From assembly GCA_000146045.2 (NCBI GenBank), contig BK006949.2:544001-608000 (forward strand): 64,000 nucleotides of DNA, in the 5' to 3' direction. The DNA comes from TPA_inf: Saccharomyces. Lineage: Eukaryota. Made by a program: the position numbers and the translations under genes. Within the stretch, counting starts at the first letter, position 1, and every line of letters begins with the position of its first letter. Below the pieces are notes generated by a model that ran no database searches, was not told the origin of the DNA, and saw only the letters and a program-made list of their open reading frames with translations. This document shows positions 6,632 through 50,475 of this stretch, in pieces.

Positions 6632-7657
6632 TCAGATGTTTTCAGAACCGGAGGTATGACCGTTTTGACTAACATGATGATCGGCCTCATGGGCTTCATC
6701 ATCTACAGGAACTTCAGTAGTCCATTCAACTTCCTCTTCTTCGACTACTTGACCGGGGATATCTCCATTTTGGATTTCAGGTTCTTCTTCTTCTTCACCA
6801 TCTTCGTCTTCATAGACGTCATCAACGGTCTGATGAAATGAAAGAGTTGGTTTGACTGCAGCCATGTCTAGGGTCCAAGATTCCAAGGCCGATTCAGCAT
6901 CCATAATAATTTGGCGAGAAGCTTCATAGCCATCGTACGCTGGTCTAGCTTCACCTGGAGTGACAGGAGAGTCATCTAGCAGCTCCAATAAGGCCTTTCC
7001 GTATCCAGCAATCAGGGCAAATTTTTCAGAAAGCTCTCTTAATGAATCAAACATATAACTATAAGCAGCCTTTAATTTTTCACGTGTGATATTCGATAAT
7101 TGAGCCTCCGCAACCAAAGATTCAGCTTCGGCACGAACTAGTTCTTGCTCTAAAACTGGGATTTTTGTTGATTGAGGATCTTTATATTTCAAATGGGCAA
7201 TTTCATCTGTGATCTTTTCCTTACGATCTCTCGAAGGTTGAACAGAGGCTTCAATGTTCCTAATTGATTTTAATGTGACTCTGTATTGATCATATTTATC
7301 GATGAACTGGTCCTGTAGTTCACCCAACTCATATATTAAGACGCCTAATTTGTCGGTTACGTCGGAAACATCATCATCATTGTCAGCACCCCATAGAGAC
7401 AGTTGCTTTGCAGCTTCACGGCGTTCGCTGGCAACAACTTCCATAGCTCTAAGGACACCTTTTTCAGTCTTAACCAATTGAGATAATTTACGAGCCAACT
7501 CTGGCCCAAAGTTACCAGCCGCATTTTTTCTAAAACTAGACGCAATAGAGGCCTTTCCGAAGAACTTGGACTTCGTTGAGGATGGTGGTGGTGGAGGAGC
7601 TTGTAGCTCAGCAGCCGTTGGAGCTCTTTGATTTCTTAAAGAGTAAGTTCTGTGCAT
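6632..7657 (-). CDS. LSP1: Eisosome BAR-domain protein (Pil1 paralogue), 341 aa
   Basis: The longest ORF is 362 aa. The known protein begins MHRTYSLRNQ, which is the in-frame Met 21 codons downstream (ATG at 7655-7657 on the minus strand). It has an acidic C-terminal tail. Confidence 0.82.
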   Translation of the reverse strand: MHRTYSLRNQRAPTAAELQAPPPPPSSTKSKFFGKASIASSFRKNAAGNFGPELARKLSQLVKTEKGVLRAMEVVASERREAAKQLSLWGADNDDDVSDVTDKLGVLIYELGELQDQFIDKYDQYRVTLKSIRNIEASVQPSRDRKEKITDEIAHLKYKDPQSTKIPVLEQELVRAEAESLVAEAQLSNITREKLKAAYSYMFDSLRELSEKFALIAGYGKALLELLDDSPVTPGEARPAYDGYEASRQIIMDAESALESWTLDMAAVKPTLSFHQTVDDVYEDEDGEEEEEPEIQNGDIPGQVVEEEEVEWTTEVPVDDEAHEADHHVSQNGHTSGSENI

Positions 7658-11956: not shown

Positions 11957-12072
11957 ATCACATGATATATTTTTTATTTTTAATTTTTTTTAATTATAAA
12001 AATAATTTTTTTCTTTAAATTAAACAAAAATAAAAAATTGTTTTTTGTTGGTTAAGATTTCCGAAAATAGAA
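11957..12072 (+). other. CEN16: Point centromere CEN16 (CDEI-CDEII-CDEIII)
   Basis: CDEI is ATCACATG (RTCACRTG consensus) at 11957-11964. It is followed by an ~83-bp tract of more than 90% A+T (CDEII). CDEIII then has the invariant TTCCGAA core, with CCG at 12061-12063. The position between YPL001W and YPR001W matches the known centromere location. Confidence 0.88.
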
Positions 12073-12376
12073 ATATTATTCAGTTGAAAGACAAAAAAAC
12101 ATAAATATTTCTATGAGCAAACAATTTGAACAGAAAAATAAAATTGGGGAAGTGACACACCATGGTAGCGGTTCTAAAGCGAAATCGGCAAAGCGGCTAA
12201 ATAGCAGTTTTGATGACTTACTCCACACTGAAAATGGATGACCTTAAATAGGAGATAAAGCTTTTTCATCCCTATGTATTTAAGATGACTGGCTTGTCAA
12301 GCATTCTAATCATAAAAAAAAGATCGTATTTGATCAAGAATTTATACATAGACGCCGCTAAATAATTGAATACAAA

Positions 12377-13837
12377 ATGGTACAAAGGCTTCTACCGGGC
12401 GCACATATATGCAGAAGGTCCTTCAATTCGTCTGCAATTATAAAGTCTTCTGCATTGACTCTCAAGGAAGCATTAGAAAACGTGATACCTAAGAAAAGAG
12501 ATGCTGTGAAGAAATTGAAGGCCTGTTATGGCAGCACGTTTGTCGGACCGATTACCATTTCATCAGTTCTAGGTGGGATGAGAGGTAATCAGTCAATGTT
12601 TTGGCAAGGAACATCATTAGATCCCGAACATGGCATTAAATTTCAAGGTTTAACGATTGAAGAATGTCAAAATAGATTACCTAATACAGGTATTGATGGC
12701 GATAATTTCCTGCCAGAATCAATGTTATGGCTGTTGATGACAGGTGGTGTGCCAACTTTCCAGCAAGCTGCTTCTTTCAGGAAAGAATTGGCTATTCGTG
12801 GAAGGAAATTGCCACATTATACAGAGAAAGTTTTGTCAAGTTTACCCAAAGATATGCACCCTATGACCCAACTTGCAATTGGTTTAGCATCAATGAACAA
12901 AGGATCCCTCTTTGCTACAAACTACCAAAAGGGCCTCATAGGAAAGATGGAATTTTGGAAAGATACTCTTGAAGATTCGCTAAATTTAATTGCTTCACTC
13001 CCGCTGCTGACTGGGAGAATTTATTCGAACATTACAAATGAGGGACACCCATTAGGTCAATATAGTGAGGAGGTGGATTGGTGTACAAACATATGTTCCC
13101 TGCTCGGCATGACAAATGGAACGAACTCTTCTAATACATGCAACCTTACTTCCCAGCAATCCCTGGACTTCATAAACTTGATGCGGTTATATACCGGTAT
13201 ACATGTAGACCATGAAGGTGGTAATGTTTCTGCTCACACCACCCACTTGGTTGGAAGTGCGTTGAGTGACCCGTATCTCAGCTATTCATCTGGAATAATG
13301 GGATTAGCGGGTCCTTTGCATGGGTTAGCAGCACAAGAAGTAGTAAGGTTTCTCATAGAGATGAACTCTAATATTTCCAGCATTGCACGAGAACAAGAAA
13401 TCAAAGATTATCTTTGGAAAATTTTGAATTCAAACCGTGTGATCCCCGGTTATGGGCACGCAGTTTTGCGTAAACCGGATCCTCGATTTACAGCAATGCT
13501 TGAATTTGCGCAAAAGAGGCCTATTGAATTTGAGAACGACAAGAACGTTTTGTTGATGCAAAAATTGGCAGAAATAGCGCCTAAGGTTTTGTTGGAACAC
13601 GGAAAGAGTAAGAATCCATTTCCCAATGTTGACTCTGCATCGGGGATTTTGTTTTATCATTATGGAATCAGGGAATTATTATTCTTTACCGTCATTTTTG
13701 GGTGTTCAAGGGCCATGGGACCCTTGACACAACTTGTTTGGGATCGCATTCTAGGTTTACCAATTGAAAGGCCCAAGAGTTTGAACTTGGAGGGTCTGGA
13801 AGCACTTACCAAAGCAAGCAATGTTAACAAGTTGTAA
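12377..13837 (+). CDS. CIT3: Mitochondrial citrate / 2-methylcitrate synthase, 486 aa
   Basis: The citrate synthase signature around GYGHAVLR is present. The 486-aa length and position as the first gene right of CEN16 match YPR001W. Confidence 0.88.
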   Translation: MVQRLLPGAHICRRSFNSSAIIKSSALTLKEALENVIPKKRDAVKKLKACYGSTFVGPITISSVLGGMRGNQSMFWQGTSLDPEHGIKFQGLTIEECQNRLPNTGIDGDNFLPESMLWLLMTGGVPTFQQAASFRKELAIRGRKLPHYTEKVLSSLPKDMHPMTQLAIGLASMNKGSLFATNYQKGLIGKMEFWKDTLEDSLNLIASLPLLTGRIYSNITNEGHPLGQYSEEVDWCTNICSLLGMTNGTNSSNTCNLTSQQSLDFINLMRLYTGIHVDHEGGNVSAHTTHLVGSALSDPYLSYSSGIMGLAGPLHGLAAQEVVRFLIEMNSNISSIAREQEIKDYLWKILNSNRVIPGYGHAVLRKPDPRFTAMLEFAQKRPIEFENDKNVLLMQKLAEIAPKVLLEHGKSKNPFPNVDSASGILFYHYGIRELLFFTVIFGCSRAMGPLTQLVWDRILGLPIERPKSLNLEGLEALTKASNVNKL

Positions 13838-14384
13838 CGCAGTTCCAATTTACAAGAATGCTTCGTTTGCTATTACAATATTGAAATATAAATAAAATTC
13901 CATACAGCATGTCTAATCATAGCTAATTTATACATATTCATCATGAAAACATATAGGGGAAAATATGGTCGGTTAACACACCTATCAAAAAATTATTCAG
14001 CAATTCCAATCTCGTTAGTAAAATATATTCTTATTTTTTTTTTTTTTCTCTGATTGTATTATTTCTGGAGTTTTGACTTATTTTTTTACCACATCGCGCT
14101 TTTCGTCCCCAATCTCTCTGATATATGATGCTGTCTATAGGTAGCCACTTCCCCGATGTCGGACCTCGGGCCGTTTACAAACTTTATTGAGATGACCTTA
14201 TTTCTCCACATTCTAGTCATTCAACTTTTACCCTCATATGTTTACCTTCACTAATGTGAAAGCATGACCAAAGAAAGTGTATAAGGTATATAAATCTGCC
14301 ATAATGTATGTATAACTTATTAGGACTTTCTCAAATAGTATTTTGGTATTTTCTACTGTTCTCTGATGATCGAGAGCAAACAGA

Positions 14385-15935
14385 ATGTTTTTAGCCAAAA
14401 ATCTAAAAAATAATAAAATCAAGGTATGCTTGCCTAAAAAGAAATTTGCTGCGCTGAGTACAGCGTCTATACAAACTAATGAAAGACCAAATCCAGATAA
14501 GGTTTTGAAGGACATCGCGAAATATGTCCATGAAACCCCATTAAAATCATCTTTGGCTCTAGATACAGCACGACTCTGTTTCCTTGATACTCTAGGCTGT
14601 GGCTTGGCGGCTTTGAAATTTAAGCAGGCTCAAAATATTATTAAACCAATTGTGCCAGGAACAATAGTTCCCAGTGGAACAAAAATATTGGGCACATCTT
14701 ACGTTATGGATCCAGTGAAGGGAGCTTTTGCCATTGGTACTCTAATACGTTGGTTAGATTACAATGACTGCTGGTTAGCTGCCGAGTGGGGGCACCCATC
14801 AGATAACCTTGGGGGAATTTTAGCTGTCGCGGATCACTTGTCCAGATTAAACAAGGCTACCCACGGAAAGAATGGAAAACAGTTTCTTGTTAAAGACGTA
14901 TTAGAGGCAATGATTAAAGCGCATGAAATCCAAGGTATTATAGCGCTCGAAAATTCTTTCAATAAAGTAGGTTTAGATCATGTGGTACTCGTGAAAGTAG
15001 CAACGGCTGGTGTTGTCTCGAAGATGCTGGGCCTGAGCCAGGAACAAACTATTGAAGCATTGTCACAAGCATTTGTAGACGGTCAATCACTGCGTACTTA
15101 CCGTCATGCCCCAAATACTGGATCTAGAAAGTCGTGGGCGGCGGGAGATGCAGTTTCGAGGGCTGTAAACTTGGCTTATTTAGTCAAAAATGCTAATGTT
15201 GGCACGATACCTTCAGTATTAACAGCTAGAACCTGGGGATTTTATGACGTTTTATTTAAGGGTAAACCTTTTTCATTCCAACAAAGATCAAAATATGATT
15301 CCTACGTCATGGAAAACGTTCTGTTCAAGATATCATTTCCTGCCGAATTCCATGCGCAAACTGCTGTAGAAGCTGCTGTAAAAGCATATAGGATTCTTGC
15401 CAAACAAGGGAAAACTTTTAAAGATATTAAATCGATCAGAATTAGAACTCAAGAGGCGGCAATGAGGATTATAGATAAATCCGGTCCTCTGTATAATTAT
15501 GCCGATAGGGATCATTGTATCCAGTACATGATCGCGGTTCCGCTGATTACTGGTAATCTCACAGCTACTGATTATTCGGATGAGGTCGCAAGAAATCCTG
15601 AGATCGATAACTTGAGATCGAAAATGTACTGTATCGAAGATACTCATCTCACTCAAAACTATCACGATCCTGATAAAAGGTCGATAGGAAACGCTCTTCT
15701 CATAGAGCTGAACGATGGGACGCAGTTGGATGAAATTTTTGTAGAGTACCCTGTTGGTCACAAATTTAGACGAGAGGAAGGAATACCATTACTAATGAAT
15801 AAATTTCAAAGGCATCTGCGCGAACATTTTGTAGAGAGCCCTGATAAAGTCGACCTTATAATGAAGGTAAGTTCAAAAACAAACTTTTTGAATATGCAAA
15901 TCGACAAATACATGGATTTGTTTACTGAGGGATGA
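14385..15935 (+). CDS. PDH1: Mitochondrial 2-methylcitrate dehydratase (PrpD/MmgE family), 516 aa
   Basis: The 516-aa PrpD-family ORF lies directly downstream of CIT3 on the same strand and matches YPR002W. Confidence 0.85.
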   Translation: MFLAKNLKNNKIKVCLPKKKFAALSTASIQTNERPNPDKVLKDIAKYVHETPLKSSLALDTARLCFLDTLGCGLAALKFKQAQNIIKPIVPGTIVPSGTKILGTSYVMDPVKGAFAIGTLIRWLDYNDCWLAAEWGHPSDNLGGILAVADHLSRLNKATHGKNGKQFLVKDVLEAMIKAHEIQGIIALENSFNKVGLDHVVLVKVATAGVVSKMLGLSQEQTIEALSQAFVDGQSLRTYRHAPNTGSRKSWAAGDAVSRAVNLAYLVKNANVGTIPSVLTARTWGFYDVLFKGKPFSFQQRSKYDSYVMENVLFKISFPAEFHAQTAVEAAVKAYRILAKQGKTFKDIKSIRIRTQEAAMRIIDKSGPLYNYADRDHCIQYMIAVPLITGNLTATDYSDEVARNPEIDNLRSKMYCIEDTHLTQNYHDPDKRSIGNALLIELNDGTQLDEIFVEYPVGHKFRREEGIPLLMNKFQRHLREHFVESPDKVDLIMKVSSKTNFLNMQIDKYMDLFTEG

Positions 15936-16196
15936 ATGGTTGGCTCTTTAAGAGCGAACGGCATGGTACCTACTTCAATTTTTAAAGACAAAAGGCGCCG
16001 TTTCGATAAACAAGAAATCACTTTCAAAACATAATTAAACCAAAGAACATGCGGTTTTCTAATTATGCTGGCTTAATTTTACTGGTATTTATCTACATAA
16101 TAATAACTATTAAAAAATTAAATAATTGGCTCTATTTATTTTTCTTTCTTCAACTTGCAAGAGTTCGTCAATTCATGGAAAAATACAAAAATAGAA

Positions 16197-16289
16197 ATGC
16201 GAATTCTGTGGATCGAACACAGGACCTCCAGATAACTTGACCGAAGTTTTTTCTTCAGTCTGGCGCTCTCCCAACTGAGCTAAATCCGC
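16197..16289 (-). tRNA. tF(GAA): tRNA-Phe (GAA) with ~19-nt intron
   Basis: The reverse complement reads GCGGATTTAGCTCAGTTGGGAGAGCGCCAGACTGAAGA[aaaaacttcggtcaagtta]TCTGGAGGTCCTGTGTTCGATCCACAGAATTCGCA, which is the classic yeast tRNA-Phe sequence with its intron. Confidence 0.93.
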
Positions 16290-16371
16290 TCAATTTCTAT
16301 GCTCTAACCACCTTAGCTAAAAACTCAATACAGGATTAGTTGATAAATGGGTGTTATCAACTCAATCCACA

Positions 16372-16480
16372 GTGTTGGAATCAGAGTCAGTTATCATCTT
16401 TGGGCTAGTATTATTGTAAGTGTTGGAATAAAAATTCTAAAATATCATCCATTTAGTAGTGTTCATATTACTAATATATC
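16372..16480 (+). mobile_element. Two tandem truncated 5' LTR (delta-type) fragments; the second is the 5' part of an older LTR
   Basis: Both fragments start with the TGTTGGAAT LTR terminus, at 16372 and at 16421. The second continues after the inserted delta at 16813. Confidence 0.6.
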
Positions 16481-16812
16481 TGTTGGAATAAAAATCCACT
16501 ATCGTCTATCAACTAATAGTTATATTATCAATATATTATCATATACGGTGTTAAGATGATGACATAAGTTATGAGAAGCTGTCATCGAGGTTAGAGGAAG
16601 CTGAAGTGCAAGGATTGATAATGTAATAGGATAATGAAACATATAAAACGGAATGAGGAATATTCGTAATATTAGTATGTAGAAATATAGATTCCATTTT
16701 GAGGATTCCTATATCCTCGAGGAGAACTTCTAGTATATTCTGTATACCTAATATTATAGCCTTCATCAACAATGGAATCCCAACAATTATCTCAACATTC
16801 ACCCATTTCTCA
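16481..16812 (+). mobile_element. Solo Ty1/Ty2-type delta LTR (~332 bp) inserted into an older LTR, with 5-bp target-site duplication ATATC
   Basis: The element starts TGTTGGAATAAAAATC… and ends …CACCCATTTCTCA. ATATC lies immediately before it (16476-16480) and after it (16813-16817). The internal sequence matches the delta consensus (…ggattcctatatcctcgaggagaacttctagtat…). Confidence 0.8.
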
Positions 16813-17087
16813 ATATCATCACGTGCGGTCTAAGAAGATGATATGAAGATTGAGAATAGTCATCAGGTGTAATGGAAGCTAATTGCAAGGATTGGTAATT
16901 TAGTAGGATGATGAATGACAGTCACATAAGATGAAAAGGAAAACAATAATGCCATTATATCGAGAATATCGATCTCTTCGTGGATTCTTCTCATAGAGAA
17001 ATTCTAGTATAATATATATACGAAATATTATGGCCTTTAACAACAATAAAATTCCAACAATTATCAACTAATTCGAACATCTCTTGA
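16813..17087 (+). mobile_element. 3' portion of an older, diverged delta-like LTR interrupted by the younger delta
   Basis: The sequence is collinear with delta from about position 50 to the terminus (…attccaacaattatcaact…tctcttga). The same subfamily reappears inverted at 27.85-28.17 kb. Confidence 0.65.
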
Positions 17088-17503
17088 CAATATACATTAT
17101 TAATTTTTACATTTCGACTTTCTTTGAATTAGGGACTGTCTCTCAATTCATCTCTTTCTCATACAGAATATCACTTATCCTATATAACTTATATAAGATT
17201 AGAATCTAACTAGAGCGAGGAGAGCGGAAACTCGGATCAAAAGTGATTGTTTAAGTGTTTGTGCGTTTGTGCGGCTCATTAAGACAATAAGGTTTTGCTT
17301 TTGTATTCAATTTTGTGGGTTTTATAACGTATAAATGCGCTTCTTGAAAGCTTGTTAACGATTTTATCGTAAAGAAATAAATAAACTAAAGAATTGAGGA
17401 GACAATACTGTTTTGATAAATAAGCCCCAAAAATATTATAGGGCCGCAAGGAATAAATTTCATAATGCGCATATGCCCAGACTCCTCTGTTTCTTTCGAA
17501 GTT

Positions 17504-19768
17504 TTACACTAGACTTGAATTAAATAAAGTATTGGACATAAAACTCTCCGAATCATTGTTCGGGACGTTGTTCCCTTTAATTTTCATTTTCTCAATTTCA
17601 TAAAGAGCCGCATCAATGCTATCGAAGTACGGAGAATATGTCTCTCCTGCATCACTAAATGTGTTGCTAGTATTATTTTCGTTGTTATTTGCTTGCGCTC
17701 TTTCCACACTAGCAGCTACACCTGCTTTGAATAATCGCCTTCTTACTTTGTCATTTATAGATACATTGACAAGGTAAATAAAGACATTGCGCCTCTTGTA
17801 ACTAGTGATAATTTCCTCCAGCACTTGGGCGGCTGAAGAATCTATTGAGGTCATCCCACCTAAATCGAAAATGACATATTTTATGGAATCCTTCGAGCGA
17901 AGTGATTTCCTTCCAGGATGTATCTTAGACGAACCGTACCTCTCTATTCTGTCAAGTCTCTGTTTTAAATCTTCGCTGTTTGTAAATGTGAGAGGCTCAG
18001 GTATTCTAACAATCATGCATCCCTCGATTTCTTCTGTGCCCTCAACATCCAGAGAGTTCCTTTTCATGTTCATCATGTAGTCGTCAAGATTCGTAAAGTT
18101 CGACGTTCCCGCTACCCTAGCCAGAATTTGGATTCTTGACTTTGCTGAATGCTTTATAATATTTATAATTGAATAGACACATCCGATGCATATTCCTGCT
18201 TCGATTGAGTAAAATATTGTAGTGCAGAAGGTAACAGCAAAAACAAATAGTTCACTAAAGCCACCACATCGCAAATGGAACTTTATGTCGCCTGGCACTT
18301 CCTCTAATAAACTAATTCCGATGATGGTTGTTATGACGGATAAAACACAATTAGGAATATAATGTACGAATTGAAGAAGTAAATTCATTGTGATTAGGGT
18401 GATGACACCCATAAACACTCCCGACATTACGCTTTGTGCTCCTGATAGGGCGTTGATCTTGGATCTTCCATATCCGCCGAATGCGGGAAGAGCACCGAAT
18501 AATGAGATGACAATATTCATGAATCCTAAAGCTACTAGTTCTCTATTAGAGGAAACGGTAAGATTGTAAGTTGTTCCAAGAGATTTCGACGCGGTCGTAG
18601 ATTCAAAAAAACCCAACATTGCCACTATTAGAGATGCACTAAAAAGATCTGGTATTAGCTTACGTCTAGGACGAGTTAAAGGGTTTTTCAATTCATCAAA
18701 ATTGTCCATGCTAAAGTCGCCAATGATAGAAATACCATATCTGTGTTTTAAATTAAATTTCATGGAAATAAGAATAGTAACAATTACCACCAATAATATA
18801 TCTGGAAAAAATATTGCGCTCTTGTGATATTTCATTAATTTCCTCTTTAGTAGACGCGTTAAAAAGAGGACAATCAAGCAACATCCGCTGAATATTGCCG
18901 TTGGTATATGGTATTGTGCTGGTGCATAATCAATGAGGAAAAGTATTTTCTCGAAAGGGGTATGGTAGTGTTGAGGCAAGCTTACTAAAAATTTGTCTAG
19001 CTTTAATTCAGAAATCAAAGAGTTGATTATCATAACCAGTCCTACTGAACTTATGAAACCTCGTAGAAGTGCCTTGCTAAGAACATTTCCAAGGAAACCA
19101 AATCTGGAAATACCAGAAAAAAGTAGGATAGTGCCACTAACAAATGTTATTACTGTTGAAATATCAATTAGAGAAACATTTTCTTTATGTAGTGTTATAG
19201 ATTCGACTGCTTGTCCCACGACCAAGGAAATTGCACTTTCGGGCCCAACTATCATCTGAGGAACAGAACCTAAAATACCATAGACAAATGGGCTAATAGC
19301 CAAAGAATATAGTCCGCATAAAGGTGGGACATGTGCAATTGAAGTTGTGTACGATAGCGCAAGTGGTATCTGAAATGACGCTACTGAGATACCTGCGATT
19401 ACGTCGCCCCACAGTTTATTGAAAGTGTACTCAGGAAGCCATGAAAAGCAGGGCAGGTAATAAGGTAAAGTTTCAAACACTGTATTCTCATCAACGCTAT
19501 CATTATTGTTCGTATTACTTGTATTACTTGTATTATTTGTATTATTTGTATTATTGGTGCATCCTGATCTTGAGTTGTTGGGTGGGGGTACCCCAGTAGT
19601 TGAATTAGATGCTGCAATATAGGTCCTGCCTCGATTGGATGAATCCTTATCATAATCAAAATTGTCCGAGAAAGTGTCACGCTGGTCGACTGATCTTTTG
19701 AATCTTGGTGGAGCGGTAGAGGAATATGACATCCTTCCACGCCCCAATAACGAATTATTTGATGTCAT
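17504..19768 (-). CDS. YPR003C: Putative SulP-family sulfate/anion transporter with C-terminal STAS domain, 754 aa
   Basis: The 754-aa polytopic membrane ORF has an Asn/Thr-rich N-terminus. Its order after the tRNA/LTRs matches YPR003C. Confidence 0.78.
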   Translation of the reverse strand: MTSNNSLLGRGRMSYSSTAPPRFKRSVDQRDTFSDNFDYDKDSSNRGRTYIAASNSTTGVPPPNNSRSGCTNNTNNTNNTSNTSNTNNNDSVDENTVFETLPYYLPCFSWLPEYTFNKLWGDVIAGISVASFQIPLALSYTTSIAHVPPLCGLYSLAISPFVYGILGSVPQMIVGPESAISLVVGQAVESITLHKENVSLIDISTVITFVSGTILLFSGISRFGFLGNVLSKALLRGFISSVGLVMIINSLISELKLDKFLVSLPQHYHTPFEKILFLIDYAPAQYHIPTAIFSGCCLIVLFLTRLLKRKLMKYHKSAIFFPDILLVVIVTILISMKFNLKHRYGISIIGDFSMDNFDELKNPLTRPRRKLIPDLFSASLIVAMLGFFESTTASKSLGTTYNLTVSSNRELVALGFMNIVISLFGALPAFGGYGRSKINALSGAQSVMSGVFMGVITLITMNLLLQFVHYIPNCVLSVITTIIGISLLEEVPGDIKFHLRCGGFSELFVFAVTFCTTIFYSIEAGICIGCVYSIINIIKHSAKSRIQILARVAGTSNFTNLDDYMMNMKRNSLDVEGTEEIEGCMIVRIPEPLTFTNSEDLKQRLDRIERYGSSKIHPGRKSLRSKDSIKYVIFDLGGMTSIDSSAAQVLEEIITSYKRRNVFIYLVNVSINDKVRRRLFKAGVAASVERAQANNNENNTSNTFSDAGETYSPYFDSIDAALYEIEKMKIKGNNVPNNDSESFMSNTLFNSSLV

Positions 19769-20006
19769 CCTATAATTGTTTCCGTAAGTTCTTGGAAATC
19801 ACTAGGAAGTTTGTGGAGTTATTGTTCTCCTCATATTCTCCCATCTGGAAGAACTCTATTATTCCTTTGCCATTTCTCGTAGTCTTTTATATTTAGTCCG
19901 CTTTACACCGAAAAGGTCATTTTTAAAAAGGCAAGAGAACTAGGAAAAGTAAAACGTGCCCCCTTCAAAGCGAAGAGATGAATATATTTAGAAGTTAAGA
20001 ATTTAT

Positions 20007-21041
20007 TTATTTATATTTACCAAGTTTTTCAGTTAGTTCAGGGACTATTTTGTAAAGATCCCCTTGCAACCCATAGTCAGCGACATTAAATATAGGGGCA
20101 TCAGGATCATTGTTAATGGCAACGATAACTTTCGAATCCTTCATTCCCGCTAAATGCTGAACTGCACCAGAAACGCCAATGGCTATATACAAATTTGGTG
20201 CGACTACCTTACCAGTCTGACCGATTTGTAGAGAATTATCACATAGTCCATTATCAACAGAAGCTCTTGTGGCACCTATAGCAGCGTGCAAAACATCTGC
20301 TAGCGGCGATAATAGCTTCTCAAATGTCTCCTTATCCTTGAGTGCCCTTCCACCAGTTACCACGTTCTGTGCAGAAGTAAGTTCAGGCCTTTCACTCTTG
20401 GTAAGAATAGTTTTAACCCAGGTAACATTTAAGTCACAAGGAGGAATATCAGTTCTCTTCTCAATGGTAACAGAATCCATACTACCCTCTGCAATTGGTG
20501 GAAAAGCTGATGCCCTAATAATCAACAGTTTTTTTTCTGCCTGGCATTCTATTGTAGAAATAATGTTACCTGCATAAATTGGCCTTATAAAGGTCTTAGG
20601 ATCTTTGATTACAGTAACCTCACAAACAGGTTGGACGTCCAAGAGCGCACCCACCCGAGGTAAAACACTTTTTCCAACAGAGGAGTTTGAGACAACAAAA
20701 TGTGAATAGTCGCCGCCTTTTAATAGTTTCACTAATAACGGAGTTAGTTGTTCGGGAAGACAGGTATCTAATTTTGAATCTTCAAATATGACAAGCTTTT
20801 CTAAATTGCTGCATGAATATGAAGATTTTAGCGCCTCAGCAGTTTTTTCAGCTTTGCTACCTGTGATTACAGCTGTGATAGGGTTAGACAACTTTTGTGC
20901 AGCAGCCAATAAACTCAATGATGACCTTGAAACAGAGCCATCTTTTGAGCTTTCAATGAAAGCTAAAGTGGAGGCGTAATTTTTCTGGAGGAACTTTGCC
21001 TTGCTAGCTCTAGGCAAGACAGCAGCCAATGATTTAAACAT
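20007..21041 (-). CDS. AIM45: Mitochondrial electron-transfer flavoprotein alpha-subunit homologue, 344 aa
   Basis: The ETF-alpha FAD-binding C-terminal region is present. The known protein starts MFKSLAAVL, which is Met5 of the longest ORF. Confidence 0.8.
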   Translation of the reverse strand: MFKSLAAVLPRASKAKFLQKNYASTLAFIESSKDGSVSRSSLSLLAAAQKLSNPITAVITGSKAEKTAEALKSSYSCSNLEKLVIFEDSKLDTCLPEQLTPLLVKLLKGGDYSHFVVSNSSVGKSVLPRVGALLDVQPVCEVTVIKDPKTFIRPIYAGNIISTIECQAEKKLLIIRASAFPPIAEGSMDSVTIEKRTDIPPCDLNVTWVKTILTKSERPELTSAQNVVTGGRALKDKETFEKLLSPLADVLHAAIGATRASVDNGLCDNSLQIGQTGKVVAPNLYIAIGVSGAVQHLAGMKDSKVIVAINNDPDAPIFNVADYGLQGDLYKIVPELTEKLGKYK

Positions 21042-21786
21042 AGAAATTAACAATTAGCTGCTTTACCGTTAATGGTAGTAAATTATATCACTAGATTTTG
21101 TTTGTTGATTATTTTAATTGTTTTTAATTTTTAGTTAGTAGATTTTCGTTCGAGGCCCTAAAAATGTACCGAAAAGTCATAATAAACGGGCGGAGTCACA
21201 TCGTAAGAGTAACATATACAATATGCGAGCAGACTTTGTCCATTAAGCCAAGTAACAACAAAAGAACCAAAAAAAGGAAAGTATCTCGTCTCTGTTGAGT
21301 AATTCTTATATCTTGCAAGATTTAATTCTCACTACTAATACGGAACTCAATCAAAGTGGCTTAATCCCAAGACATGCATTGAATACGGTATCATTGGCTG
21401 TTGACAGTTTAAGAAAAGTAGTTGTCACGTTCCTGAGGTTACTGGGGACAAGGGAAAGTAGATACTCGTCTTACGAAATTGGATATAGTTACTCTCTAAT
21501 GCTCAATCCATGTAAAGCATGAATCATCTCAACAGAAAAATCTGGGAGAGCATATTTGCAACAAAAGAATCCAAATATCAGTATATAATTATATAAGTGA
21601 GCTAAGAAGTGAACAAAAGAAAAGGAAGAGGGGAAAAATTTTGGCTGGACTTGTAGAACGATAGAACGAAAGAGTCCAAGGGGGAAGTAATAAAGTTATT
21701 GAACGAAACAACAAAAATTCGATGGAGATATTAACAAATGCATAGCAGCGCAGCTAACCGACCCGAAGCTAGTACCAACGAATTTT

Positions 21787-22671
21787 TCAACTATTCTGTG
21801 TTGATTGTCTCCTTTGCAACACCGAGCTCTTCAGTATTCTCAGCTGAAAGTTATTATTGAAATCACGTTGGGGACTTTCATGATCTAGTGGTCTTGGTGA
21901 GTAGCATTTAATATTTTGACCATTGAAAGGGCATCTCTCAATTGGAGAAAGGCCACTCTTAGGGATAGGCGTTTTAACAATCTGTTTATGGGATGAATGA
22001 TATATTTTTGAGGATGGATTCACGATACTGATATGTTTCCCGTCCGCATTATTCGGATATGTAGTGCCTTCTTTCGATAAAATAGATGCCAATCCTGGCG
22101 TATGCTTTGTTTCGATGACGGAGCTTACCAATTTTTCACTTCGTATTTTCGATGAGTTCTTATTTTTACATTTGACGTTCAATATTCCGACATACGTCTC
22201 TCTTTCTGAAATGTTGGAACTCTGTGGCCTTGGATTTGGTGTTTTTTCACCCGAAAAATTGTTGATAACTGCACTTTTCTTTGAGGTACTACTATTTATA
22301 TCTTCCTGCTCTTTTGTTCCCCGCTTAAGATGTTTTGGATGGCAAGTTTCAATAAACTGCGGTTTTATTCCTGCTTCTGAAGAGGTGCCCGAGATGTGAA
22401 CCTCATTTCCACCACTACCAGTATAAGTAAAGTAGTCCGTACCTTCTTTTCCAAAGTCATTTGAGGAATATACCAAAAAAACACCTTCCTTTACTTGAAA
22501 GCGATCCACGAATGGGAAAGTATCCCCTTCCGAAGTCACATCTGAGGGAACAAATTTTAAAACATATGAGATGTTGTTTTCATCCACGGCATCATAAAAT
22601 TTACAGCAATTATTCTCATACATCAAGTTTTTGAGAGTGTAGTCATGCAATCCTAAATCTTTGAAATGCAT
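21787..22671 (-). CDS. HAL1: Halotolerance protein, 294 aa
   Basis: The 294-aa ORF between AIM45 and ICL2 matches YPR005C. Confidence 0.75.
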   Translation of the reverse strand: MHFKDLGLHDYTLKNLMYENNCCKFYDAVDENNISYVLKFVPSDVTSEGDTFPFVDRFQVKEGVFLVYSSNDFGKEGTDYFTYTGSGGNEVHISGTSSEAGIKPQFIETCHPKHLKRGTKEQEDINSSTSKKSAVINNFSGEKTPNPRPQSSNISERETYVGILNVKCKNKNSSKIRSEKLVSSVIETKHTPGLASILSKEGTTYPNNADGKHISIVNPSSKIYHSSHKQIVKTPIPKSGLSPIERCPFNGQNIKCYSPRPLDHESPQRDFNNNFQLRILKSSVLQRRQSTQNS

Positions 22672-23268
22672 CTGATCTATTTGTTTCTGTATTTCTCTTT
22701 TCTTGAGTTATATAAACGGAATGATTAGTAGTTTGGCAGAATTTATAGCAAGTATTAAATAGTTGAATACCTCAATATTCTCCATAATAAACGCCATATC
22801 GTACATAAAGGCTAAAACAAGAATGCCTGATACCGTTCTGCTTTTTGTTTTATCTTTCCCTATATTTTCTTTCCCTTTTGATGCTTTACGTAATTTTTCC
22901 CGGCATATGTGAGCTTCCTAATAGACTCTATTTTTATTTTTCCCTTTCAAAGTGCGAGAGAAATACACACAACCAGCCTACGCTTATTTTCACCCATACC
23001 GTCATACGCCATATGATATATAATGTGAAACAAACGCGGGGAAGAGCGCGACACGACAGCTTAGCAGGGGCATTCCACGCAACACCTGAAACTTTAAGTA
23101 AAACTGTTTCTGCGAGGATATCTTGGCAAAACAAACACTAACTTTCGAACTAAATATAGTGATCGTGGTCATAAATTAATAAAAAGAGGATAAATAGAGA
23201 TAAAAGAGATATGTGACTAAGTTGCTGGCAATATGTATTATTTATACTTTTATCTTCTTGAAGCGTAT

Positions 23269-24996
23269 TCAAAATTGCGTTTCGGTAAAGCTCTCACCAG
23301 ATGTACTTAAAGTTTGGGATGAAGCACCGTTTTGGACAACTTTCATTAAGGAATCAACATATTCTGCACCAGACCATAGCTGGTGTGTCATGATATCACA
23401 ATTAGTCTCCTTTTCCCGTTTTTGCACTTTTTCGACGTATGCTTTCATTCCGTCACTTTGGAAGCTATTGGCTAATTCCCAGAATGATACTCCATCTGAA
23501 TGCAGACCGGCAAGGGAAACCAGTTGCAACGTGAAGCCTTCTTTTGCCAAGTCCCATACGAAGGATTTTAATGCCTTATCATCAAAGCCGTGAGCGCTCC
23601 AATTGAAACTAGGAGATAAGTTATATACTAGCTTGGTAGCTGGAAGTTGTTTATGAATTTTTCTTGAAAATGAGCGTGCCTGCTCCAGGTCAGGAGTTTT
23701 CGTTTCCAGCCAAATCATATCAGAATATGGGGCAAACACCAAAGATCTTCTAATAGCTGCTTCAATACAACCGTTAAACATGTAATATCCCTCTTTGGTC
23801 CTCGGAGCATCCCAGTCAAATATAATTTTCTTTAGTGGTGTCACTTCTTGAGCTAAAAGTTTCATTTCTCTTAAGCTTAGGTATGCTCTACCCAGCTTGT
23901 TTACCATAAGGTCTTCCTTCTTTTCTTTATAGCTTTCAAACTCGCTTGCCGTAAACTGCTTTTCTAAGGCCTCTTCAAATGTAAACAGCTCATTTTCATG
24001 GTACCATTCTTTTTCCATGTCAGCAATGGCGGAGTTGGGAATTTTTTTGTCCTCCATCTCAATCAATTTTTCGCTCCAAGGCACCACGTTATCTCTTATT
24101 ATACCCCTAATGAATTCGTGGTCTCTCGGATCACTGCTTGAACTCAACAGCTTACCATTACAGGAATCTGTTCTTGCAATAACCAAATTTTCTGTCCCCA
24201 TGATATCCCATTGAAACCTGGTGGAAATCAATCTCATAAGATGTGTTGCTGTGGGCACCAAAACAGCCCCACTTAGATGGCCACACCTTTTGCCTCCCAC
24301 CATCTGATCTTCAAGATGAATACCAGCAGCCCCTTTCTCCGCAAACAACTTAGCAACTTTCATTACAGTCGTTGGGCCACCGTGACCCATGTCTGCGTCC
24401 GCGATAATTGGTTTTAAATAATCAACAGGAGTAGAACCTTTGATGGAGGCCTCCAAGAAAGCCTTTCGATCGTGCAATTGCTGCGCCTTGAATATTCTCT
24501 CCACTTGATTCGGCACAGTATCGTATGGATAATCGCCAAAATCCGGCGATACTTCATTTGTAGATCCAACTAATGTGGAAGAACAAGCCCAACCAGATAT
24601 GTAAGCAACTTTGATATTTCTGCAACGGGCCAACTGACTCATTTGTACAGGATCGATAACTCCCAACGTGTGAAGTGGAGTACCATTCTTGAAATTCTCT
24701 TCTAGTAAGTTGAACAGCTTTCGAGCTTGATAAGATGAAGGATAAATTGAAGTATTAGCAGGAAGGCTGCCCCGATGCTTTACAACATCCGTAGCTGAGT
24801 ATGGACGACTGATATTCTTAAATCTGGCTGATTCCCACCATTCTTCTACTTTACTTGATTCCGAGAACACGAAGTCTTTAGTACTGCTTGCCCCGTTGAA
24901 AGATCTTCGCAGTGACTTGTCTGATGACAAAACCAGCTTCTTCAGTGTTCCCGTAGTTTTTCTATTGAAAGTTTTGTTGTTAATCATTGTAATCAT
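23269..24996 (-). CDS. ICL2: Mitochondrial 2-methylisocitrate lyase, 575 aa
   Basis: The isocitrate-lyase signature K-[KR]-C-G-H is present as GGKRCGHLSG. The 575-aa length matches YPR006C. Confidence 0.88.
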   Translation of the reverse strand: MITMINNKTFNRKTTGTLKKLVLSSDKSLRRSFNGASSTKDFVFSESSKVEEWWESARFKNISRPYSATDVVKHRGSLPANTSIYPSSYQARKLFNLLEENFKNGTPLHTLGVIDPVQMSQLARCRNIKVAYISGWACSSTLVGSTNEVSPDFGDYPYDTVPNQVERIFKAQQLHDRKAFLEASIKGSTPVDYLKPIIADADMGHGGPTTVMKVAKLFAEKGAAGIHLEDQMVGGKRCGHLSGAVLVPTATHLMRLISTRFQWDIMGTENLVIARTDSCNGKLLSSSSDPRDHEFIRGIIRDNVVPWSEKLIEMEDKKIPNSAIADMEKEWYHENELFTFEEALEKQFTASEFESYKEKKEDLMVNKLGRAYLSLREMKLLAQEVTPLKKIIFDWDAPRTKEGYYMFNGCIEAAIRRSLVFAPYSDMIWLETKTPDLEQARSFSRKIHKQLPATKLVYNLSPSFNWSAHGFDDKALKSFVWDLAKEGFTLQLVSLAGLHSDGVSFWELANSFQSDGMKAYVEKVQKREKETNCDIMTHQLWSGAEYVDSLMKVVQNGASSQTLSTSGESFTETQF

Positions 24997-25335
24997 CGGC
25001 GAAATACTAGAAAAGTCGAAATCGATATTATTATCGGCGCTGTAGCTTCTTTAGGCCACTAGTACTTTTATAAGCTCTTCAACCGCAACAAAAGTTAAGA
25101 AATAAGAGAGTTATTCTTAAGCCCATTTTTTACATTATATAGTGTACGTATGATATCGCTAGCATGATGTTAGTGTTTCGGCGCTTCTAATTGAAGAGCA
25201 TATCCTTTTCTTCTCCAATGCACTTTTATTTCTTTCCCCGCAAGCATATTCGGCCCGGATCTCGGACTTGGATCATTAACCTGAGGACAGCGGCTAGTAA
25301 CCGCTGTCGCTCATATGGAAGGAGAAAATAAAAAT

Positions 25336-27378
25336 TCAGGCATATACAATTATTTCGTCCTCTCTTCTCAGTTTAAGATCTTTAGTTACCGCATCTGCAA
25401 CAGGATATTCGTTCAACTTGACCATCCCTTTCGTAGCCAAATTCAGTAAGGATAGGAAGGCACTGGCGGCTATCTGTCTGCTGACACCTCTTTCTACATC
25501 ATCAAAGTTAGCTCCCGTTTGAGCTTCGCCCATGCGGCTTGGGATGATGTCAACCAACAGCATCTTTCTCTTGAAAGGCGGATTGGAGCGCGTTGTTCTT
25601 CCGACAACAATTGATCTTTCTTTGATGTAATCGTAGAATTTTTTAGTTTGATAATCCAGAATGACGTCTTGAAAATTTGTTTTGTCCTGCTGCAAATTTT
25701 GCTGAGAGCCATCAGAAAAACAACTGTTGCTGGAATCGTCTTCCTCGGCAAAATTCTGTTCAGATGGCCCGACTCTCCTTCTGAGAGCACCAACTATATC
25801 TTCATTGAAACCACTAGACCTGGTTGAGTTTCTGGTATGACTTCTTCCAAAACTTGAAGGAGGTAGATTCAAATTAAAATCTAGGATGTTACCTTGAGAG
25901 TTTTCTTCAATATAGTGCCCATCTTCCAAATCCTCATTAATTTGTTCAAGGTTTAAAAGTAAATTATCATTTTCCATATCGGAAGAATAATTATCGTTCT
26001 TATTATTGCGAAAACTTTTCCTACCATATTCGTGACTTCTGGTACTACTTGAGCTTTGGGTTGATACTAAAGAATGTGCTCTTTTTCTCCCTCTTTCAAC
26101 TGAACTAAAACCTTGGGGATATAAGTCCCATTCGCTAGTCTTTATATTGGAAAAGTCGTTAAATATACTTAACCAATTTGTTGAAAAAAATTCTTCCTCA
26201 CCACATGACCTTACCAAACTACTTATGTTAGAGGTGAGAAAATTTTGGCCGGTTAGTTTTCTAATCCTGTTTTTTTCCATTAAGTGACTGTAATTTCCAT
26301 GGTTGAATTTGAGAACTTCATTTGGATAACTCGTTTTGGCATCAAATTGTACCTTAGAAAATTGCCCACCTACATCGGCGCGATGTCCTCTTTGCATTCT
26401 GGTGTTAAGTTTCTGTTGAAGATCGTTTTCTTCTTCAGAAGCCTGCGCTTCTAACCCCAATTCGTAGTCTTTGAGATTGGCTACCGGCCCTTCATTTTCA
26501 ACTGATGTATCTTCTCCTCCATTACTGTTATTTTCATTATCGTTCTCAAAATTCAACACCAATTCATCTCCTTGATAATTAAACTTGAAATCGTTTCCAT
26601 CCTTCTGTGAACTTGAGTGAGAGCCTAAAGGTGTCCCCTGATGGCTCACTATATCATCTAAGTCCAGGTTAAAGTCCACATCAACGGGAATTTCATCCAG
26701 CGGAAAAGAATTTCTAACGTTAGATCCTAGATTACTTTGCGCGTCTGAGTTAGTCATGTCCCCATGAAGCTCGAACCTGTTAGAATTACTTAACTCATTG
26801 ATGTAGTCTTGTCTCCTTATTGATTTAGCTTCCTCAATAAAAGATACATTATCTTGGAGAGTAGTGTTAAGAAACTCCAGTGCGGGAACTTTAGTAATAT
26901 CATATAAGGGATCGTCATCGAAAAAAACGCATTCTTCCCAGGTGTAATTATTGTTTTTGTTTCCTATAATACTGTTATTACTATTCAATCCATTAATCCT
27001 CGTAGACTTATTTTTGGCCTTAAAAGCGTATACATCATTTTTTTGTAACTGCACAAGCAGGTGATTTAGGTCATTCAACACATACTCGGTTTTTTTATTA
27101 TAGCAAATTGTCACTCCATATAAAAGATTAGAAATGTATCTAAGAGAAAAATCATTTTCGAAATTTTGAATTTCATCACATGTTTTTGGTATGGAAATAT
27201 TTACGATGTCTTTTTTCTTAACGGTGGATGAAGATATGTTTCCAGTGGAGTTGCTTTTGTTTGAATAATAATTGTTACTTTCCTTTACAATGGAATTTCC
27301 CAACGCAGAAAGCAACCACACTGTTGTGAGGCCCTTATATTTCTTGTCATCTTTAAAGTTCAACGAAAGAGGTGCCAT
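25336..27378 (-). CDS. REC8: Meiosis-specific cohesin kleisin subunit, 680 aa
   Basis: The 680-aa length and order match YPR007C. There is a URS1 element in the promoter, listed below. Confidence 0.82.
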   Translation of the reverse strand: MAPLSLNFKDDKKYKGLTTVWLLSALGNSIVKESNNYYSNKSNSTGNISSSTVKKKDIVNISIPKTCDEIQNFENDFSLRYISNLLYGVTICYNKKTEYVLNDLNHLLVQLQKNDVYAFKAKNKSTRINGLNSNNSIIGNKNNNYTWEECVFFDDDPLYDITKVPALEFLNTTLQDNVSFIEEAKSIRRQDYINELSNSNRFELHGDMTNSDAQSNLGSNVRNSFPLDEIPVDVDFNLDLDDIVSHQGTPLGSHSSSQKDGNDFKFNYQGDELVLNFENDNENNSNGGEDTSVENEGPVANLKDYELGLEAQASEEENDLQQKLNTRMQRGHRADVGGQFSKVQFDAKTSYPNEVLKFNHGNYSHLMEKNRIRKLTGQNFLTSNISSLVRSCGEEEFFSTNWLSIFNDFSNIKTSEWDLYPQGFSSVERGRKRAHSLVSTQSSSSTRSHEYGRKSFRNNKNDNYSSDMENDNLLLNLEQINEDLEDGHYIEENSQGNILDFNLNLPPSSFGRSHTRNSTRSSGFNEDIVGALRRRVGPSEQNFAEEDDSSNSCFSDGSQQNLQQDKTNFQDVILDYQTKKFYDYIKERSIVVGRTTRSNPPFKRKMLLVDIIPSRMGEAQTGANFDDVERGVSRQIAASAFLSLLNLATKGMVKLNEYPVADAVTKDLKLRREDEIIVYA

Positions 27379-50259: not shown

Positions 50260-50475
50260 GAAAGGCTTCAACTGAAAAAAAGAAAGATCTACATCGTTAA
50301 ACCAAAAGGTTTGCGAACTGACTAAAAAATAAAATTCTTATTGGTTCCACTTCTTGAAATACATCATTTTTCCAGCCAATTCGTTGAGGAGAAGAACATT
50401 CTGTTATTGCTGTTACAGAGAATTATATGTTTTAGTGAACCTCAAGACAGAAGAGAATCGAAAGGAAAAGGGAAA

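Follow-up and report, generated by a model that had tools for sequence, protein, structure and literature searches.

Yeasts have few clusters of primary-metabolism genes, and those that exist serve as test cases for the causes of gene clustering in eukaryotes, among them co-regulation, co-inheritance and the avoidance of toxic intermediates. The stretch of DNA considered here, positions 544,001 to 608,000 of contig BK006949.2 in the Saccharomyces cerevisiae assembly GCA_000146045.2 (64,000 nucleotides, referred to as the window), carries three genes of propionyl-CoA catabolism, CIT3, PDH1 and ICL2, immediately to the right of a centromere. The locus raises the question of whether this proximity is an accident, an inheritance from an older arrangement, or something that selection has kept. 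Our reading is that the proximity is inherited, and that in the trio we see what erosion has left of an old ascomycete methylcitrate gene cluster, the stable core being the CIT3-PDH1 pair; we put the probability of this at about 0.8.

In the pathway as we understand it, the mitochondrial 2-methylcitrate cycle, Cit3 would join propionyl-CoA and oxaloacetate to give 2-methylcitrate, Pdh1 would convert 2-methylcitrate to 2-methyl-cis-aconitate, aconitase would turn this into 2-methylisocitrate, and Icl2 would split 2-methylisocitrate into pyruvate and succinate. The methylcitrate trio is a clean and small example of a cluster with a known toxic intermediate.

The three genes and the role of chance

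Coordinates are those of the window unless a fetched locus (L001 and so on) is named.

12377-13837, plus strand: CIT3, mitochondrial citrate / 2-methylcitrate synthase, 486 aa (Pfam Citrate_synt, 1.6e-85)
14385-15935, plus strand: PDH1, PrpD-type 2-methylcitrate dehydratase, 516 aa (MmgE/PrpD N-terminal domain, 1.9e-88; C-terminal domain, 1.5e-55)
23269-24996, minus strand: ICL2, mitochondrial 2-methylisocitrate lyase of the isocitrate-lyase family, 575 aa (Pfam ICL, 5e-167)

A first-pass annotation, made from the letters of the window alone, had named these genes, and its identifications hold: the open reading frames (ORFs) lie at exactly these positions, the Pfam families fit, and the nearest database proteins are all from S. 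cerevisiae. The CIT3 product has 99% identity to P0266, the PDH1 product 99% identity to the S. cerevisiae protein P0001, and the ICL2 product 100% identity to P0121, whose cluster includes Icl2p of named S. cerevisiae strains. The locus tags of sister species (SMKI_16G1680/1690, SKDI_16G2680, SUVZ_16G2810/2850) place the region on chromosome 16. CIT3 and PDH1 were also correctly described as adjoining and co-oriented, being separated by a spacer of 547 bp, and the trio does lie within 12.6 kb to the right of CEN16: it spans 12,620 bp, with the CIT3 start codon 312 bp to the right of the core of centromere DNA element III (CDEIII). The interval between PDH1 and ICL2 holds three unrelated genes, a SulP/STAS permease gene, AIM45 and HAL1, which makes the S. 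cerevisiae group a loose cluster of six gene positions.

If genes were placed at random, three given genes would fall within six consecutive positions with a probability of about 2e-6, and a given pair would be adjacent with a probability of about 3e-4; after allowing for a few hundred small pathways the figure is about 1e-3. These are non-homologous genes of one pathway that lie nearer to one another than chance would bring them, as is the case in eukaryotic metabolic gene clusters. It might still be argued that three related genes have come to lie within six positions of the S. cerevisiae chromosome by pure coincidence, since three unrelated genes interrupt the group and ICL2 is on the opposite strand and has no specific promoter motif in common with the other two. 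Set against this are the raw probabilities just given and the same linkage in many other species, both those described below and those already in print (PMC5773181, PMC7324963). The cross-species data effectively refute coincidence, which we consider extremely improbable.

Conservation of the CIT3-PDH1 pair

Synteny was assessed from the fetched neighbourhoods of PDH1 and ICL2 orthologues and from the locus tags returned by three homologue searches. CIT3 and PDH1 were found to be adjacent in 13 budding yeasts. Among the loci fetched, the two genes lie side by side in the same orientation in Zygosaccharomyces rouxii (L001), in GCA_900180425.1 (L003), an assembly that we take to be Kazachstania saulgeensis, and in the phaffomycete Cyberlindnera fabianii (L004), and they are adjoining but divergent in Babjeviella inositovora (L010). 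Consecutive locus tags point to adjacency in S. mikatae, S. eubayanus, V. polyspora, T. blattae, T. phaffii, K. africana, Eremothecium gossypii (AGR002W/AGR003W) and Wickerhamomyces mucosus, while one gene separates the two in K. naganishii and five do so in N. dairenensis. It had been proposed that the clustering would have to be judged by synteny, and that dispersal of the orthologues in all related species with no co-regulation would make it coincidental. Instead, the two genes are neighbours in Saccharomyces and still so in Eremothecium, Zygosaccharomyces, Cyberlindnera, Wickerhamomyces and Babjeviella.

The genes that flank the pair in Cyberlindnera and Babjeviella have none in common with the Saccharomycetaceae context, which indicates that the pair stayed together while its surroundings changed. 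The synthase beside PDH1 in C. fabianii is of the methylcitrate-synthase type (538 vs 459 bits), and the same is true of the synthase of Pyronema (481 vs 360 bits), which is located 3.4 kb downstream of PDH1. Linkage beyond background synteny is found for CIT3-PDH1, whose 13 species with adjacency include three with unrelated flanks, and in part for ICL2.

Linkage of ICL2

The lyase gene would be the looser member of the cluster, being contiguous with the others in Babjeviella, beside the dehydratase gene in Lipomyces and beside the synthase gene in Paracoccidioides. In Babjeviella the lyase, synthase and dehydratase genes follow one another within 6.5 kb (L010 4971-11488), and the lyase belongs to the ICL2 subfamily; in Lipomyces starkeyi an ICL2-type gene lies directly upstream of PDH1. 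Altogether, ICL2 is linked in Saccharomyces, Kazachstania, T. globosa, Kluyveromyces, Babjeviella and Lipomyces, and unlinked in five other lineages.

A different layout is seen in Kazachstania. In GCA_900180425.1 ICL2 lies 21.6 kb from PDH1, on the opposite side of the pericentromeric block, and this agrees with the locus tags of K. africana (0B01840/01850/01930) and K. naganishii (0D02470/02450/02360). The YPR003C and DEG1 orthologues of GCA_900180425.1 are separated by an interval of about 6.5 kb (L007 19790-21704, L003 1-3022), the sequenced part of which has no ORF of at least 100 aa and carries a tRNA-Gly(GCC) gene at L007 19986-20056. This interval is likely to be the breakpoint of a pericentromeric inversion that moved ICL2 across the CIT3-PDH1 block, and the Kazachstania-type layout is consistent with a single inversion with the tRNA-Gly gene at its breakpoint.

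A YPR003C-like permease gene is linked to ICL2 in T. globosa and GCA_900180425.1 and not in K. lactis. AIM45 and YPR003C were considered as hidden members of the cluster and rejected, since the company they keep with ICL2 in T. globosa and in GCA_900180425.1 does not extend to K. lactis. We know of no role in the pathway for either gene.

Origin of the S. cerevisiae arrangement

In Z. rouxii the gene order was found to be SPB4-DEG1-SNF8-HAT1-[CEN-like element]-LOC1-CIT3-PDH1-NIC96-YPI1-RPN11-SAD1-YFR006W, a block which presumably mixes genes of the CEN16 side of S. cerevisiae (YPL002C, YPL001W, YPR001W, YPR002W) with genes of the CEN6 side (YFL002C, YFL001W, YFR001W to YFR006W). The ICL2 locus of T. 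globosa reads REC8-ICL2-YFH7-like-AIM45-YPR003C-Ty-YFR006W. Because the two blocks join at YFR006W, a pre-duplication order that includes ICL2 can be proposed, namely HAT1-CEN-LOC1-CIT3-PDH1-NIC96-YPI1-RPN11-SAD1-YFR006W-YPR003C-AIM45-YFH7-ICL2-REC8. The ancestral gap between PDH1 and ICL2 would have held eight genes, and it measures about 22 kb in the one such arrangement measured. After the whole-genome duplication, chromosome XVI retained CIT3, PDH1, YPR003C, AIM45, ICL2 and REC8, and chromosome VI retained LOC1 and NIC96 through YFH7, so that in Saccharomyces the gap shrank passively to three genes and 7.3 kb.

The first-pass annotation had given the distance of ICL2 as 7 kb. As a measurement this was accurate, the two stop codons of PDH1 and ICL2 being 7333 bp apart. 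The tightness of the spacing is a passive result of gene loss within a linkage that was older and looser, NIC96 through YFH7 having survived on chromosome VI.

Evidence against the proposed inherited cluster, and the neutral alternative

A number of observations weigh against reading the trio as the remnant of one old cluster. The S. cerevisiae group is itself interrupted by three unrelated genes. Gene order and orientation vary by clade, to the point that repeated assembly and the erosion of a single cluster are indistinguishable. ICL2 and CIT3-PDH1 are on different chromosomes in N. dairenensis and T. phaffii and on different scaffolds in V. polyspora; in T. blattae ICL2 is about 470 tags from the pair, and in E. 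gossypii it is about 60 genes off and on the other arm (AGL057W vs AGR003W). In K. lactis ICL2 has a FOX2-ICL2 neighbourhood and a rearranged context. E. cymbalariae has kept PDH1 and appears to have lost CIT3: the LOC1-PDH1 interval (L002 8076-10000) has no ORF of at least 150 aa and gave no tblastn match for CIT3. In Tuber and in the basidiomycete Coprinellus, PDH1 has no pathway neighbour within 10 kb. Finally, the ancestral order given above is stitched together from two species, and the tags of T. globosa, which come from two different strains, suggest that CIT3 and ICL2 are separated by about 17 tags and not by 12.

Several of the same data would suit a neutral account, in which the genes, once linked, have simply not yet been separated in the slowly rearranging neighbourhood of centromeres, and in which the linkage has neither function nor selection behind it. 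The HAT1-CEN-LOC1-CIT3-PDH1-NIC96 block is syntenic across the Saccharomycetaceae and includes many unrelated genes, the linkage of ICL2 was lost repeatedly without loss of the genes, the compaction in S. cerevisiae was passive and followed duplication, and Tuber and Coprinellus do without linkage. What such an account fits less well is that CIT3-PDH1 was kept in Cyberlindnera, Wickerhamomyces and Babjeviella despite changed surroundings, that the trio is fully contiguous in Babjeviella, and that different pairs are adjacent in Lipomyces and Paracoccidioides (PMC7324963). S. cerevisiae and C. albicans, according to what Seoighe et al. reportedly found in 2000, have only about 9% of gene adjacencies in common. 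We regard neutral inheritance as a possible explanation, and a doubtful one. Under the inherited-cluster reading it may be that selection keeps the genes linked, for example by avoiding a build-up of toxic 2-methylcitrate and 2-methylisocitrate or by aiding co-expression.

The centromere and recombination

11957-12073 (right limit approximate): point centromere CEN16, with CDEI ATCACATG at 11957-11964, an A+T-rich CDEII, and the CDEIII core TCCGAA at 12060-12065

This element has the parts by which a point centromere is recognized, namely a CDEI matching RTCACRTG, a CDEII that is rich in A+T and roughly 80 bp long, and a CDEIII with a CCG core. Its CDEI-CDEIII interval is 95 nt long and 93% A+T, and in a pattern search it was the only match to CDEI, an A+T-rich stretch and CCGAA within the 64 kb window. 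From its sequence and its synteny, the tripartite element presumably functions as a centromere. To its left, the window carries HAT1, SNF8 and ULA1.

A CEN-like element also lies between HAT1 and LOC1 in Z. rouxii, and likewise in E. cymbalariae, where it consists of the CDEI TCACATG, about 176 nt of 88% A+T, and then TGTTTTTGTTTCCCGAA. No canonical CEN element was found in the HAT1-LOC1 interval of GCA_900180425.1 (L003). According to the Ashbya gene names (AGR002W/AGR003W), CIT3 and PDH1 are the second and third genes to the right of the Ashbya centromere. The pericentromeric position is ancestral to the Saccharomycetaceae, and equally so for the unrelated neighbours; since these neighbours hold equivalent positions, the location is shared synteny and not evidence of selection.

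In budding yeasts, double-strand breaks are suppressed for about 3 kb and crossovers for about 20 kb to either side of a centromere (PMC4749563). The trio lies 0.3-13 kb from the point centromere, inside the crossover-suppressed zone, and for this reason it would segregate as one block; the earlier proposal that recombination is very low here is in accord with the reported suppression. It could be imagined from this that the pericentromeric position was itself selected, with the centromere acting as a recombination-free supergene anchor for co-adapted alleles. In S. cerevisiae, Z. rouxii, E. cymbalariae and E. gossypii the pair does occupy the first or second gene position next to the centromere, and the span of about 20 kb on each side over which crossovers are suppressed (PMC4749563) would cover it. 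The synteny flanking the centromere is, however, also kept for the unrelated HAT1, SNF8, LOC1 and NIC96, the outgroup pairs share no flanking genes with the centromere block, and 12 kb amounts to tight linkage anywhere in the yeast genome. We consider such an anchoring role unlikely.

A practical consequence of the position of CIT3 has been met with in the single-chromosome strain SY14, in which the promoter of CIT3 and the 5' part of its coding region were lost when CEN16 was deleted (PMC8456624); the gene is so near CEN16 that centromere engineering can destroy it.

Two further observations concern this neighbourhood. REC8, the gene for the meiotic cohesin Rec8, sits inside the cohesin-rich pericentromere, and its adjacency to ICL2 is kept in T. 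globosa and GCA_900180425.1, which is probably plain synteny. Furthermore, all three citrate-synthase genes are, as we take it from their systematic names, near centromeres (CIT3 = YPR001W, CIT1 = YNR001C, CIT2 = YCR005C); as CIT1 and CIT2 are presumably duplication partners, this would correspond to two ancestral pericentromeric positions.

Enzyme subfamilies and the bacterial operon

The assignment of the three products to the methylcitrate pathway was examined by comparison with solved structures and with the enzymes of bacteria. The CIT3 product matches the 2-methylcitrate synthase structures of A. fumigatus with 486 bits, against at most 434 bits for canonical citrate synthases, and appears to be of the fungal methylcitrate-synthase (McsA) type; its matches to bacterial PrpC-type enzymes reach only 1e-13 to 5e-8. 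PDH1 carries both PrpD domains. It matches solved bacterial PrpD structures at 4e-183, and Pdh1 and enterobacterial PrpD are 59.2% identical over 475 aligned residues. For ICL2 the best solved relative is 8z1r, with 565 bits against at most 458 bits for canonical fungal isocitrate lyases, and its matches to bacterial PrpB-type lyases are at about 1e-8 only. The product groups with 8z1r rather than with the canonical enzymes. It also has the K-[KR]-C-G-H signature, a motif which by itself cannot tell an isocitrate lyase from a methylisocitrate lyase; the string GGKRCGHLSG, which had been cited for ICL2, was found in the translation.

Evidence for the activities comes from the literature. It had been pointed out that a lack of methyl-substrate activity in Cit3 or Icl2 would refute the proposal, and such activity is reported for both in the papers to which two sources refer: a dual citrate/methylcitrate activity of Cit3 (Graybill 2007, as cited in PMC10534831) and the substrate specificity of Icl2 (Luttik et al. 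2000, as cited in PMC4912071). Pdh1 is labelled 'probable' by UniProt in a table of PMC4912071, and by homology yeast Pdh1 would be a 2-methylcitrate dehydratase.

The subfamily matches bear on where the cluster came from. Because PDH1 is bacterial-like while CIT3 and ICL2 are eukaryotic paralogues, the fungal set is, as judged from these matches, a mosaic of a bacterial-like dehydratase with paralogues of citrate synthase and isocitrate lyase, and not an inherited prp operon. The identity of 59% between Pdh1 and PrpD is unusually high for a eukaryote-bacterium pair. A bacterial origin, horizontal or mitochondrial, is suggested for the dehydratase alone.

One might nevertheless see in the trio a relic of a horizontally acquired bacterial prpB-prpC-prpD operon with its gene order kept. 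The 59% identity of PDH1 to enterobacterial PrpD is what such a relic would show, and the Babjeviella order of lyase, synthase and dehydratase mirrors prpB-prpC-prpD (PMC5690661). The idea conflicts with the matches of CIT3 to mitochondrial citrate synthase (1e-129) and of ICL2 to fungal isocitrate lyase (1e-136), as opposed to only 1e-13 and 1e-8 for PrpC and PrpB, and with the mixed orientations and separate promoters of the genes; at most the dehydratase would be of bacterial origin. On subfamily grounds, with CIT3 not of the PrpC type and ICL2 not of the PrpB type, we reject this origin and consider it very improbable.

Promoters and co-regulation

The three upstream regions, with the motifs found in them, are as follows.

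12074-12376, plus strand: CIT3 promoter, between the centromere and the ATG; ATTGGGG at 12143-12149, GTCAC on the minus strand at 12152-12156, GATGACC at 12237-12243
13838-14384, plus strand: PDH1 promoter, identical with the CIT3-PDH1 intergenic region; ATTGGGG on the minus strand at 14107-14113, GATGACC at 14191-14197
24997-25335, minus strand: ICL2 promoter, 339 bp to the REC8 stop codon; ATTGGAG at 25213-25219, Mig1-like GCGGGG at 25236-25241

The word ATTGGRG, which contains the CCAAT core, is present in all three promoters at 220-280 nt upstream of the ATG. The CIT3 and PDH1 promoters have the 9-mer ATGACCTTA and the 7-mer CTCCACA in common, and both have GATGACC. A motif scan of the ICL2 promoter gave no GATGACC, no R box of the retrograde (RTG) pathway and no carbon-source-responsive element (CSRE). 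Exact words of at least 7 nt common to all three promoters were A+T-rich only and showed no excess over Markov shuffles, and oleate-response, Gcn4 and Leu3 sites gave no consistent pattern in the promoter scans. The suggestion that a CSRE-like motif might be shared by the three upstream regions failed: the consensus CCRTYSRNCCG had no match in the three S. cerevisiae promoters or in 14 orthologous promoters. The canonical R box GGTCAC was likewise absent from the three S. cerevisiae promoters, and bare GTCAC was present in the CIT3 promoter only.

Enrichment in the 14 orthologous promoters, which represent eight other yeasts, was examined with intergenic sequence as background. GATGACC was found 6 times (0.41 expected), ATTGGRG 10 times (1.8 expected) and, in the promoters of species other than S. 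cerevisiae, GGTCAC 9 times (1.1 expected). In an unbiased ranking of the methylcitrate-gene promoters of nine yeasts, GATGACC was first among the 8192 canonical 7-mers, with 8 of 17 promoters carrying it where 0.52 were expected (P = 1.5e-8, or about 1e-4 after Bonferroni correction), with the reservation that the motif background is small (71 kb) and the orthologous promoters are not fully independent. The orthologous sites are in L001, L002, L004, L005, L007 and L009, and the Mig1-like words GTGGGG and GCGGGG were also enriched in the 7-mer ranking. Both this reservation and the presence of GATGACC in the CIT3 and PDH1 promoters but not in that of ICL2 count against the inherited-cluster reading.

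On the opposite strand GATGACC reads GGTCATC, one base from the R box GGTCAC. It may be speculated that Rtg1/Rtg3 bind GATGACC, and GATGACC/GGTCAY elements may mediate the regulation of the trio. In S. cerevisiae colonies, Cit3p, Pdh1p and Icl2p were lower in rtg1 and higher in mks1 mutants, and an RTG-type response was confirmed in mRNA for CIT3 and PDH1 (PMC8198273). In K. marxianus, the trio was up 294-, 32- and 28-fold on xylose vs glucose (PMC4912071). Co-expression, which had been put forward as a check on the significance of the cluster, is supported in the literature both by the 28- to 294-fold co-induction in K. marxianus (PMC4912071) and by the RTG dependence in S. cerevisiae (PMC8198273). 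The three genes would each be transcribed separately and be co-regulated in trans, with repression by glucose and activation through the RTG retrograde pathway.

Taken together, these strands could be combined into a fuller account, in which the trio is an ancient primary-metabolism cluster of mosaic origin maintained by selection across much of Ascomycota, in which the adjacency of the pair guards against unbalanced expression or inheritance and so against an accumulation of toxic 2-methylcitrate or 2-methylisocitrate, in which the cluster became fixed next to a point centromere in the Saccharomycetaceae and is made a de facto supergene by crossover suppression, and in which GATGACC/GGTCAY, possibly a variant R box, is the regulatory signature. 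We offer this fuller account tentatively, and would sooner doubt than assert it as a whole.

Neighbouring genes and other observations

The genes that surround the trio in the window and have no place in the pathway, together with REC8, are listed below.

17504-19768, minus strand: SulP/STAS anion permease, YPR003C-like (Pfam Sulfate_transp and STAS)
20007-21041, minus strand: AIM45, ETF-alpha subunit (Pfam ETF and ETF_alpha; first ATG at 21041)
21787-22671, minus strand: putative HAL1, 294 aa, without a Pfam family
25336-27378: REC8, meiotic cohesin gene, directly upstream of ICL2

The S. cerevisiae proteins named Hal1p among the members of the P0121 cluster are also 294 aa long, and the L007 orthologue of HAL1 is only weakly similar. 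The 90%-identity cluster of P0121 (Icl2p) lists many of these 294-aa Hal1p, the product of the neighbouring gene; their membership appears to be an artefact of how the protein collection was clustered, perhaps via a fused gene model. Elsewhere in the window, an A-over-T skew of 0.286 at 50-52 kb is due to an ORF at 50341-52296 with a long Lys/Glu/Arg-rich stretch, which resembles the large subunit of chromatin assembly factor I and is trivial.

The LOC1 promoters of two distant yeasts (L001 at about 6925-6945, L003 at about 7062-7085) carry a CATCTCATCTCATCTCATCTC repeat. On the opposite strand this repeat is a run of GATGAG and resembles the PAC ribosome-biogenesis motif.

Comparison with known systems

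The genes, their functions and their map positions are already known from textbook S. cerevisiae annotation, and fungal clustering of the pathway was published in 2018 for K. marxianus and in 2020 for Paracoccidioides. Full-text searches found no paper in which the three S. cerevisiae genes are discussed as a cluster or followed from yeast to yeast, Luttik et al. 2000 and Epstein et al. 2001 being outside that search. The additions made here are incremental, namely how widely synthase and dehydratase genes are paired, the contiguous trio of Babjeviella, the account of the spacing by gene loss, and a candidate promoter element, and they leave current understanding unchanged. The natural states of the trio range from contiguous (Babjeviella) through a pair plus outlier (Saccharomyces, Paracoccidioides) to dispersed (Naumovozyma, Tetrapisispora) and are usable for comparative or relocation experiments.

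The closest parallel is K. marxianus, which, like S. cerevisiae, has the same three orthologues on one chromosome, with CIT3-PDH1 adjoining and ICL2 close (Schabort et al. 2018, PMC5773181). The synteny that was to be looked for in Kluyveromyces is therefore present, and the authors of that report described the trio as 'up-regulated and co-localised' and did not discuss its relationship to the centromere (PMC5773181). Kluyveromyces differs from S. cerevisiae in having ICL2 beside FOX2 in a rearranged context and in being a pre-duplication genome. In Paracoccidioides, a filamentous/dimorphic member of the Pezizomycotina and in this unlike S. cerevisiae, the three pathway genes also lie close together, within about 22 kb and with six or seven unrelated genes interspersed, and their promoters have putative sites for a carbon-catabolite repressor of the CreA/Mig1 type (PMC7324963). 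Here, unlike in S. cerevisiae, the adjoining pair is the lyase and the synthase, with a common promoter region, and the dehydratase is 16 kb off (PMC7324963).

The bacterial prpBCDE operon of Salmonella and E. coli resembles the yeast trio in its pathway chemistry, in its homologous dehydratase (59%) and in having its genes linked. It differs in being polycistronic, in its dedicated regulator, and in a synthase and a lyase of the PrpC and PrpB subfamilies. The yeast genes are monocistronic and lie on both strands, with a promoter-bearing spacer of 547 bp and three intervening genes, and they do not form an operon.

Within S. cerevisiae itself, the GAL1-GAL10-GAL7 and DAL allantoin clusters are comparable, in that, like the methylcitrate trio, they bring non-homologous genes of one catabolic pathway close together under common regulation. 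The GAL and DAL genes are contiguous, and the DAL cluster reportedly came together recently, when its genes moved to a subtelomeric site. The avoidance of toxic intermediates has been proposed as the advantage of linkage in such classical clusters (e.g. Wong & Wolfe 2005). Compared with GAL and DAL, the methylcitrate trio has a greater age, a pericentromeric site and unrelated genes in its midst, and it owes its present tightness to gene loss, not to relocation.

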